Source of the DNA: Rickettsiales bacterium
GTDB lineage: Bacteria; Pseudomonadota; Alphaproteobacteria; Rickettsiales; Rickettsiaceae
Direction of reading: 5' to 3'
Assembly: GCA_002402195.1 (NCBI GenBank)
Contig: NVVL01000001.1
Coordinates: 16,069 to 80,068, forward strand
Length of the DNA: 64,000 nt
Shown here: in pieces, positions 13,509-14,488 of the stretch
Numbering within the stretch: the stretch's first letter is position 1
Layout: every line of letters begins with the position of its first letter
Made by a program: the position numbers and the translations under genes
The notes under the pieces: model-generated
What the model was told of the DNA's origin: nothing
The model's database searches: none
The model's input: the letters and a program-made list of their open reading frames with translations, nothing else

Positions 13509-14132
13509 ATGTCTAGGGGAATATTTGCAACGACAAAAGGCTCAGTATCTGCCGATCAGGTTCGGGCGACTATAGAGAAGTTTAGTCAAGGAAAGGAGCA
13601 TTATATAGGTGGTTTTCACGAGGCTTTGAGAAGTTGTTTTGATTCCAAGAATATTGATATTATTACATCTGCTTTTCGTAATGAAAAAACGGTTTCTGTA
13701 CAATGTGGGAGTGAAGTTTGGTTGCTAGAAATGGCTCCTCCTCCTCCTCTCTATCCTCCAGGTTCTGAAAACAACCCAATAGCCTCACATGTCACCATGC
13801 CTGCTCTTGAGTCTTTGATTGCAAATTTTGCCAGAAATTCCACGCTGCAAGCTCTTGGATTTGAGAAAGCTATGGAAGATTATTTTAATGTTAGTGACCT
13901 TCAAAATATTATATCGATTCTGCTTAATGGCAATGATGTATATATAATATGCGCTCGGGGCCGTATTCTTCAGTTAACTGAAGAGAATCTATCGCCACCC
14001 CGGCATCTACTGGAAGAGCCGGTTGCTGTAGAAGAGCTTACAGATTCTCCTGATTCTCCTGGTTCTCCAGATTTTTCAGATTTTTCAGATTCTGCCAAGT
14101 ATTTAGGCGGTGAATCTGATTTTGTATTCTAA
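13509..14132 (+). CDS. Hypothetical protein with two copies of an unrecognised ~60-aa module
   Basis: Strong SD (GGAAGG), internal duplication, Pro-rich linker and acidic tail with 9-nt repeats (DSPDSPGSPDFSDFSD). Confidence 0.75.
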   Translation: MSRGIFATTKGSVSADQVRATIEKFSQGKEHYIGGFHEALRSCFDSKNIDIITSAFRNEKTVSVQCGSEVWLLEMAPPPPLYPPGSENNPIASHVTMPALESLIANFARNSTLQALGFEKAMEDYFNVSDLQNIISILLNGNDVYIICARGRILQLTEENLSPPRHLLEEPVAVEELTDSPDSPGSPDFSDFSDSAKYLGGESDFVF

Positions 14133-14151
14133 GACGACATAGCCGCATTTA

Positions 14152-14167
14152 TTACTTCATAGCTTCT
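14152..14167 (-). repeat. Palindromic element arm; exact 16-bp inverted copy of 13046-13061
   Basis: TTACTTCATAGCTTCT is the reverse complement of AGAAGCTATGAAGTAA. Confidence 0.85.
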
Positions 14168-14185
14168 AAGGACTCTCTTGAAATT

Positions 14186-14488
14186 TTGTTTGAGGGTTTT
14201 ACTAGCAGGGGTAATTATTATGGTTCTGAATTTATAGAAAATATGCAAAGTTATTTTGAGAAGGAGGATCTTGAAAAACTTGCGTCAATTTTATGGGATT
14301 TAAAAGAGAAAGCTTATGTAATGTGCTCGTGTGGTGAAGTATTGTGTTTGGGCGCTGATATAGTGTCACTTCCTGCGTTGTCACCACTGCTCGCAGGAGA
14401 TGCGGAGGAAATGGAAGAGCACTTGAATACAGATGGAAAACCTGATTCATTGGTAGCTGGGGACGGCGTAGCTGCATTTGTTATATGA
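14186..14488 (+). CDS. Hypothetical protein with one copy of the same ~60-aa module; 5' end uncertain
   Basis: Aligns with both modules of 13509..14132. It has a TTG start only, and similarity extends about 9 codons upstream, to around 14159. Confidence 0.65.
   Translation: MFEGFTSRGNYYGSEFIENMQSYFEKEDLEKLASILWDLKEKAYVMCSCGEVLCLGADIVSLPALSPLLAGDAEEMEEHLNTDGKPDSLVAGDGVAAFVI

Follow-up and report, generated by a model that had tools for sequence, protein, structure and literature searches.

Three stretches encoded by two neighbouring open reading frames of a Rickettsiales genome are true copies of one small domain of ~65-70 residues, and the family that they belong to is, as far as sequence comparison can detect, restricted to one genome and without relatives outside it. 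The window, that is, the whole stretch of 64,000 nucleotides analyzed here (C103:16069-80068), comes from a draft genome of 1.9 Mb in 111 contigs with 40% G+C, which encodes autotransporters, an ankyrin protein, TolC, VirB4, and VirD4; from its genome size and gene content, the organism looks like an intracellular alphaproteobacterium. An independent ENA assembly, probably built from the same reads, was used as a check of the locus sequence and is identical to it across 6624 nt, including the sites of the TAA, the TAG, and the frame offset described below.

The first reading frame, ORF1 (13509..14132, forward strand), encodes an acidic protein of 207 aa (pI 4.6) without a signal peptide, in which module 1 is followed by a Pro-rich linker with a PPLY motif, by module 2, and by an acidic Ser/Pro tail. 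Copy 1 was placed by HMM and pairwise alignments at 13539..13730 (forward strand, aa 11-74 of ORF1), and copy 2, including its N-terminal 'NPIAS' strand, at 13773..13979 (forward strand, aa 89-157). Copy 3 (IASKDS...VLCLG; 14159..14353, forward strand) lies with its own tail in an open frame of 122 codons (14120..14488, forward strand), which gene callers start at TTG 14186 to give a protein of 100 aa (P0003, here ORF2). Copy 3 begins with 9 residues (IASKDSLEI) that precede this TTG, the sole usual start codon in the frame, and ASKDSLEILFEGF lies 5' of every ATG, GTG, or TTG there. Since the TTG falls inside predicted helix 1, the 100-aa ORF2 as called carries a truncated module. Similarity between the copies was measured as local BLOSUM62 scores against 2000 shuffles: copies 1 and 2 gave z = 6.2, with 1 shuffle reaching the observed score; copies 1 and 3 gave z = 6.0 and copies 2 and 3 gave z = 12.2, with 0/2000 shuffles as good in either case. 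Copy 3 is nearest to copy 2 (score 74, z = 11-12). A reading of the sequence alone, without database searches, had proposed a module of ~60 aa present three times with three equally spaced Phe residues. The observation is borne out: every peptide that it quoted is there, the ~65-aa stretches align significantly against shuffled controls (z = 6-12), Phe stands at positions 13, 24, and 32 of each of the three window copies, and a Cys is common to all of them. The same reading had placed a Pro-rich linker after each copy, which holds for linker 1 (7 P in 17) and the tail of copy 2 (6 P in 33) and hardly for the tail of copy 3 (3 P in 33).

We then searched the genome with an HMM built from the window copies alone. 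Among its 18,041 six-frame ORFs, this profile, one of the checks proposed by the sequence-only reading, retrieved one further protein, at C40:34273..35199 (E 2.3e-5), in which three matched stretches lie ~95 aa apart. This protein, P0002, is intact, has 296 aa and three modules, lies on another contig between lpdA and a sensor kinase, and is present in three assemblies (ENA ERZ23499665, Logan SRR5988126, and JGI 3300029924). An HMM of all six copies found no member in the genome beyond the window proteins and P0002. Two copies are thus held by ORF1, one by ORF2, and three by P0002. The alignment of the six copies is without any invariant column; the pattern of hydrophobic positions is kept, and a short N/D-P-I motif precedes each module. 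Pro-rich linkers are absent from P0002, and PPLY and similar motifs are not kept there. Between ORF1 and P0002, the ~37 nt that surround the start codon show 78% identity (E 0.01), pointing to a duplicated start region common to the two genes. For a one-to-one positional orthology of the window modules with those of P0002, the signal is weak and confined to the two first modules, and the second and third window modules are mutually closest.

Searches outside the genome were uniformly negative. The HMMER profile search of 1.84e9 representative proteins yielded nothing genuine beyond P0001, P0002, and P0003, and the word-indexed search of 5.8e9 proteins returned the query alone. Six other representative hits (P0004-P0009) were rejected as spurious; they are kelch-like and BspA-like repeat proteins in which 17-residue stretches were matched several times. 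No convincing match was found in 61 related genomes, 27 of them of the same genus. The hits in two of these genomes (G002 and G017, E 0.002-0.006) fell on helices at the N-terminus of an unrelated protein (372-401 aa) without a Pfam family and are non-significant across 61 genomes. Single-protein scans of metagenome contig and genome contig collections revealed no related locus. Neither ORF1 nor P0002 nor the second orphan P0010, described below, matched Pfam, PHROGs, NCBIfam, or PADLOC; the sole profile match of ORF2 was TerY_C (E 0.16, 12.5 bits vs. a cut-off of 28.4), and the best match among PDB sequences was to unrelated proteins (E 0.38). The earlier statement that the module cannot be assigned to a family agrees with all of these results, and the proposed comparison with known Pfam families matched none.

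Structure prediction points to a compact fold. With the six-row module alignment, all of it from one genome, and copy 2 as the target, AlphaFold2 gave a mean pLDDT of 84.2 and a pTM of 0.69, with 4 of 5 models at 79 or above; P0002 folded at full length from its sequence alone gave no usable model (pLDDT 38). From N- to C-terminus, the module model shows a short strand at "PI", helices at residues 9-22, 27-34, and 40-51, and a beta-hairpin at 56-59 and 65-68. No structure in PDB or BFVD reached a Foldseek E ≤ 0.001 or a TM ≥ 0.5 across most of the domain, which we took as the mark of a known fold. The best E-values were 1.1 (PDB) and 0.84 (BFVD) in a search that is insensitive for 70-residue domains, and TM scores normalized to query length were mostly between 0.2 and 0.45, two BFVD hits reaching 0.52-0.55. 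The module is predicted to be a small alpha/beta domain whose fold is without a significant match among PDB and BFVD structures. The expectation of a new small alpha/beta domain family fits the lack of sequence relatives and the confident model, and the proposed AlphaFold and Foldseek check ended with such a model and no significant structural match. The best partial superpositions were with Phd/YefM antitoxin N-domains (PDB 3hs2 and 4zm2), which are likewise small, with a strand, helices, and a beta-hairpin, over 30 columns at an rmsd of 1.8-1.9. The module differs from them in an additional helix, in its acidity, and in its presence as three tandem copies, and the matches have E > 1, a probability of at most 0.35, and a TM of 0.35. 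Membership in Phd/YefM is also opposed by the absence of a Pfam PF02604 match, of any sequence match, and of a toxin family for the adjacent P0010, and by the acidity of the proteins.

The intact paralog has a partner. A second orphan, P0010 (144 aa, pI 4.3; C40:35258..35704, equal to L017:8962-9396), begins 70 nt past P0002 and is followed by a copy of the palindromic element described below; it has no relatives among 5.8e9 proteins and no family match. In the window, positions 13155-13320 are 72% identical to this locus over 169 nt (E 1e-20), and an ORF of 42 codons at 13232..13360 matches P0010 (phmmer E 2.5e-5), which makes the ORF a truncated P0010 copy just 5' of ORF1. The stretch 13155..13360 (forward strand) thus comprises the last bases of a P0002-like gene, a spacer, and ~35-42 codons from the start of a P0010-like gene, and together with the element half 5' of it, the truncated copy marks a rearranged cassette remnant in the window. 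P0010 itself contains two copies of an internal repeat (…FSFSVERGGAKFLGLEFSGE… and …FRFSIDVYHIKYLHIDFSGE…). M-S-R opens the products of all four genes in the two families (ORF1, P0002, P0010, and the small ORF at 13232), as MSRG, MSRV, MSRD, and MMSRE.

On its 3' side, the locus borders rpsU-COQ9-ileS (14666..18841), which is conserved across the genus and syntenic in five relatives (loci L021-L025). Beyond rpsU, each of the five has different DNA, and the LRR-GTPase gene, ORF1, and ORF2 are absent there in all of them. Judged from this synteny, the region is lineage-specific and variable, a recurrent breakpoint of synteny that in this genome holds the LRR-GTPase gene and the orphan cassette. 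The module had been described as expanded next to an effector gene. An LRR-GTPase effector candidate does lie directly 5'; the link is weak, however, as the intact paralog stands between lpdA and a sensor kinase.

A dispersed palindromic element accompanies the cassette. In the window, blastn against the genome identified its left half, made up of a terminal inverted repeat and an inner part, at 13043..13118 (forward strand), 15 nt 3' of the LRR-GTPase stop codon. The outer ~20 nt of an element end lie inverted at 14148..14170 (reverse strand, z = 6.7), where they supply the TAG and overlap the 'IAS' start of copy 3; this end shares a perfect 15-mer with at least 10 other sites of the genome, and a 19-nt inverted repeat pairs the left half with 14152-14170. 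A degenerate second end at 14480..14498 (reverse strand, z = 3.4) overlaps the TGA stop of ORF2, and the 18 nt preceding it match the stretch before 14148. The element is ~165 bp long, MITE-like, and has the ends TTAGAAGCTAYG...CCTAGAATATCTCGTATTTTTAGAG. Its blastn comparison with the 1.9-Mb genome gave 124 full or partial hits, some of them weak, of which ~19 match the outer 15-mer with at most one mismatch; copies lie just past stop codons or overlap them. Examples from the full genome are C39:32722-32890, C6:42890-43060, and C54:12210-12380, and hairpin-only short forms occur as well (C110:12810-12850). Small palindromic repeats known as Rickettsia palindromic elements invade both coding and non-coding DNA (PMC1166351). 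The present element, compared with them as a DNA element alone and by form and position, is likewise a dispersed palindromic repeat that overlaps gene 3' ends, supplies a stop codon, and sits at a duplication junction; unlike those elements, it marks gene ends and junctions and does not lie in frame within a conserved protein. A 16-bp hairpin with T-runs on both sides (14512..14547, unstranded) forms a shared terminator-like site between ORF2 and rpsU. An Rfam scan of 12900-14900 gave chance matches alone (E 0.38 and 0.88). The idea that the stretch 5' of ORF1 duplicates the sRNA-Xcc1-like leader (6754-7145) was also rejected, the two having the palindromic-element motif alone in common.

The break between ORF1 and copy 3 (14130..14162, forward strand), read directly and the same in the ENA assembly, consists of TAA at 14130-14132, nine in-frame codons (DDIAAFITS), and TAG at 14160-14162; relative to ORF1, copy 3 is read in the -1 frame. 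The closest relationship is that of copies 2 and 3, whose tails align too. The 36 nt past the ORF1 stop (14133-14167) and the end of ORF2 (14463-14498) are about 80% identical by manual count, and of each of these unit ends the final ~20 nt, and no more, come from the dispersed element (z = 6.7 and 3.4). The shared tail ends and element ends indicate that a unit of module, tail, stop codon, and element end was duplicated in tandem. Its left junction falls on an 8-nt match between ATAGCCTC, which codes for "IAS" in linker 1, and ATAGCTTC in the element end. In this scheme, tandem duplication of copy 2 and its tail, together with the ~20-nt stop-bearing element end, would have given rise to copy 3 and its tail. 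The present order was also considered as the outcome of an inversion of the 1.1 kb that the 19-nt inverted repeats enclose; this was discarded, as the same tail and element end also close ORF2. Identity between copy 2 and copy 3, split by codon position, amounts to 0.48/0.62/0.43 for the module and 0.55/0.55/0.34 for the tail, so that the second position is the most kept in the module and the third is the least kept in both. In simulations of a neutral copy with 20-50% of sites changed, indels ignored, a stop-free frame survived in 6.5% down to 0.2% of the trials. This codon-position pattern and the rarity of stop-free neutral copies argue that copy 3 was coding through most of its history.

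How copy 3 is used today can be read in several ways. Until recently it may have belonged to a longer protein, or it may still be translated from its TTG; as it stands, it would be severed from ORF1 by TAA, TAG, and the one-base offset, with its sole start within helix 1. We consider it probable, with some reserve, that the window locus is a rearranged and partly decaying copy of the two-gene cassette in which ORF1 and ORF2 are one duplicated, split gene, and we favour recent decay over a one-module gene. Of the earlier notion of two adjacent orphans, the orphan status stands, no family having been found, and the two frames are better read as a single split gene. A lesser but still appreciable probability attaches to ORF1 and ORF2 being separate working genes, with ORF2 started at TTG 14186, or by re-initiation past the ORF1 stop, to give a one-module protein, the arrangement being a stable product of the tandem duplication. 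The ORF2 frame is open for 122 codons with coding-type conservation, it is annotated by gene callers, an AAGGA lies 13 nt 5' of the TTG, and no terminator-like site separates the two frames. This AAGGA is, however, part of the palindromic element end and not a dedicated ribosome-binding site, a protein started at the TTG would lack strand 1 of the predicted domain and over half of its helix 1, and homology with copy 2 extends 9 codons 5' of the TTG, to 'IAS'. The adjoining P0010-like gene is clearly truncated as well, which also argues for a decaying locus. Conceivably, a three-module isoform could arise beside the 207-aa product through programmed -1 frameshifting at the T-run 14120-14123, where the two frames overlap by 10 nt, as ORF2 is in the -1 frame of ORF1 and the TTTT in the overlap 14120-14129 would allow re-pairing of tRNA-Phe. 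We regard this as very improbable: the site has no X XXY YYZ heptamer and no downstream stimulatory structure (z = -1.2 to +1.5 vs. shuffles), the 13-codon would-be linker (FCILRRHSRIYYF) is basic and hydrophobic, unlike all other linkers, and an upstream open stretch of 13 codons equals chance expectation.

As to function, the sequence-only reading had suggested that the shared Cys might be catalytic or metal-binding, and the paralog contradicts it. The column is Gly in all three modules of P0002 and corresponds to residue 60 of the AlphaFold2 model, right after the first hairpin strand, at the turn. Because of this substitution in the paralog and the hairpin-turn position, the Cys is, on the alignment and the model, a small-residue turn position and neither catalytic nor metal-binding. 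Neither an invariant Cys nor the invariant partners expected of a Cys-dependent enzyme or metal domain were found, as the six copies have no invariant column. That the module is nevertheless a new domain with a catalytic or metal-binding Cys, expanded within an effector locus, has in its favour that the Cys is invariant across the window copies and that the candidate LRR-GTPase effector gene lies directly 5'. With Cys replaced in 3/3 paralog modules, no other invariant polar residue in the six copies and nothing else pointing to catalysis, and no effector-like gene adjoining the paralog, we give this idea hardly any credence. A role in binding seems more plausible, although we would place it somewhat short of an even chance: the proteins may be non-enzymatic, acidic 'beads on a string' binders that reside in the bacterial cytosol and have their modules joined by disordered linkers, acidic or Pro-rich, and the type IV system of the genome may deliver them to the eukaryotic host. 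ORF1, ORF2, P0002, and P0010 are all acidic (pI 4.1-4.95) and without signal peptides, and the genome carries the type IV system markers VirB4 (121.9 bits) and VirD4 (548.9 bits). As the main functional alternative, the genes could be cargo of DNA rich in mobile or palindromic elements and act inside the bacterium instead of on the host, P0002 and P0010 forming a pair such as an antitoxin- or immunity-like binder and its partner. The two orphan genes are adjacent at both loci, the palindromic element is present at both, and the best, insignificant, Foldseek matches are the partial ones to Phd/YefM antitoxin N-domains (30 columns, probability 0.35). These matches have E-values > 1, however, three tandem copies are unusual for antitoxins, both proteins are acidic and neither toxin- nor DNA-binder-like, and neither matches PADLOC, Pfam, or PHROGs, which makes the proposal rather improbable. 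A still more specific scenario, in which the module is a new alpha/beta fold, born or diverged in one Megaira-type lineage, that serves as the host-binding unit of secreted proteins and changes in copy number through duplication and recombination at element ends, is conceivable and at present unlikely; algae and ciliates are the hosts of 'Ca. Megaira' symbionts (PMC10132079).

Among known systems, the nearest in kind are the tandem-repeat and tandem-domain secreted proteins of Rickettsiales (Ehrlichia TRPs and candidate rvh type IV effectors; PMC11077975). These too are acidic, repeated, without signal peptides, and narrow in lineage, and are encoded by variable-region genes of intracellular alphaproteobacteria with a type IV system, secretion being putative in the present case. 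Their units are short disordered repeats or eukaryote-like Ank, TPR, and LRR domains, whereas those described here are predicted folded alpha/beta units of 65-70 aa without relatives. If the model holds, a confidently folding domain without relatives in sequence or structure is confined to one uncultured Rickettsiaceae-like symbiont. Orphans of this kind are the usual raw material for host-interaction proteins in intracellular bacteria and are seldom characterized. At the locus, a short palindromic element marks gene ends, supplies stop codons, and sits at the junction of a module duplication, and if the reading as a new fold is true, the birth and amplification of a domain would be visible in a symbiont. 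The practical value is modest, with one metagenome-assembled genome and a window copy that is probably decaying, and the intact P0002 is the better object of study.

Two features of the protein ends and linkers may be added. In the C-terminal 30-50 aa, the LDAVTSIF-rich/KHPMWC-poor fraction is 0.70 in ORF1, 0.57 in ORF2, and 0.57 in P0002, against a genome mean of 0.53 (sd 0.11); the composition, which marks type I secretion substrates of the Ehrlichia TRP type, is not distinctive relative to that mean and gives no clear secretion signal. Linker 1 (ORF1 aa 76-83, about 13734-13757) reads PPPPLYPP, and the tail later carries DSPDSPGSPDFSDFSDS, neither of which is kept in the paralog. The PPLY of this linker is a PPxY-type motif, and motifs of that type are ligands of WW domains in eukaryotes.
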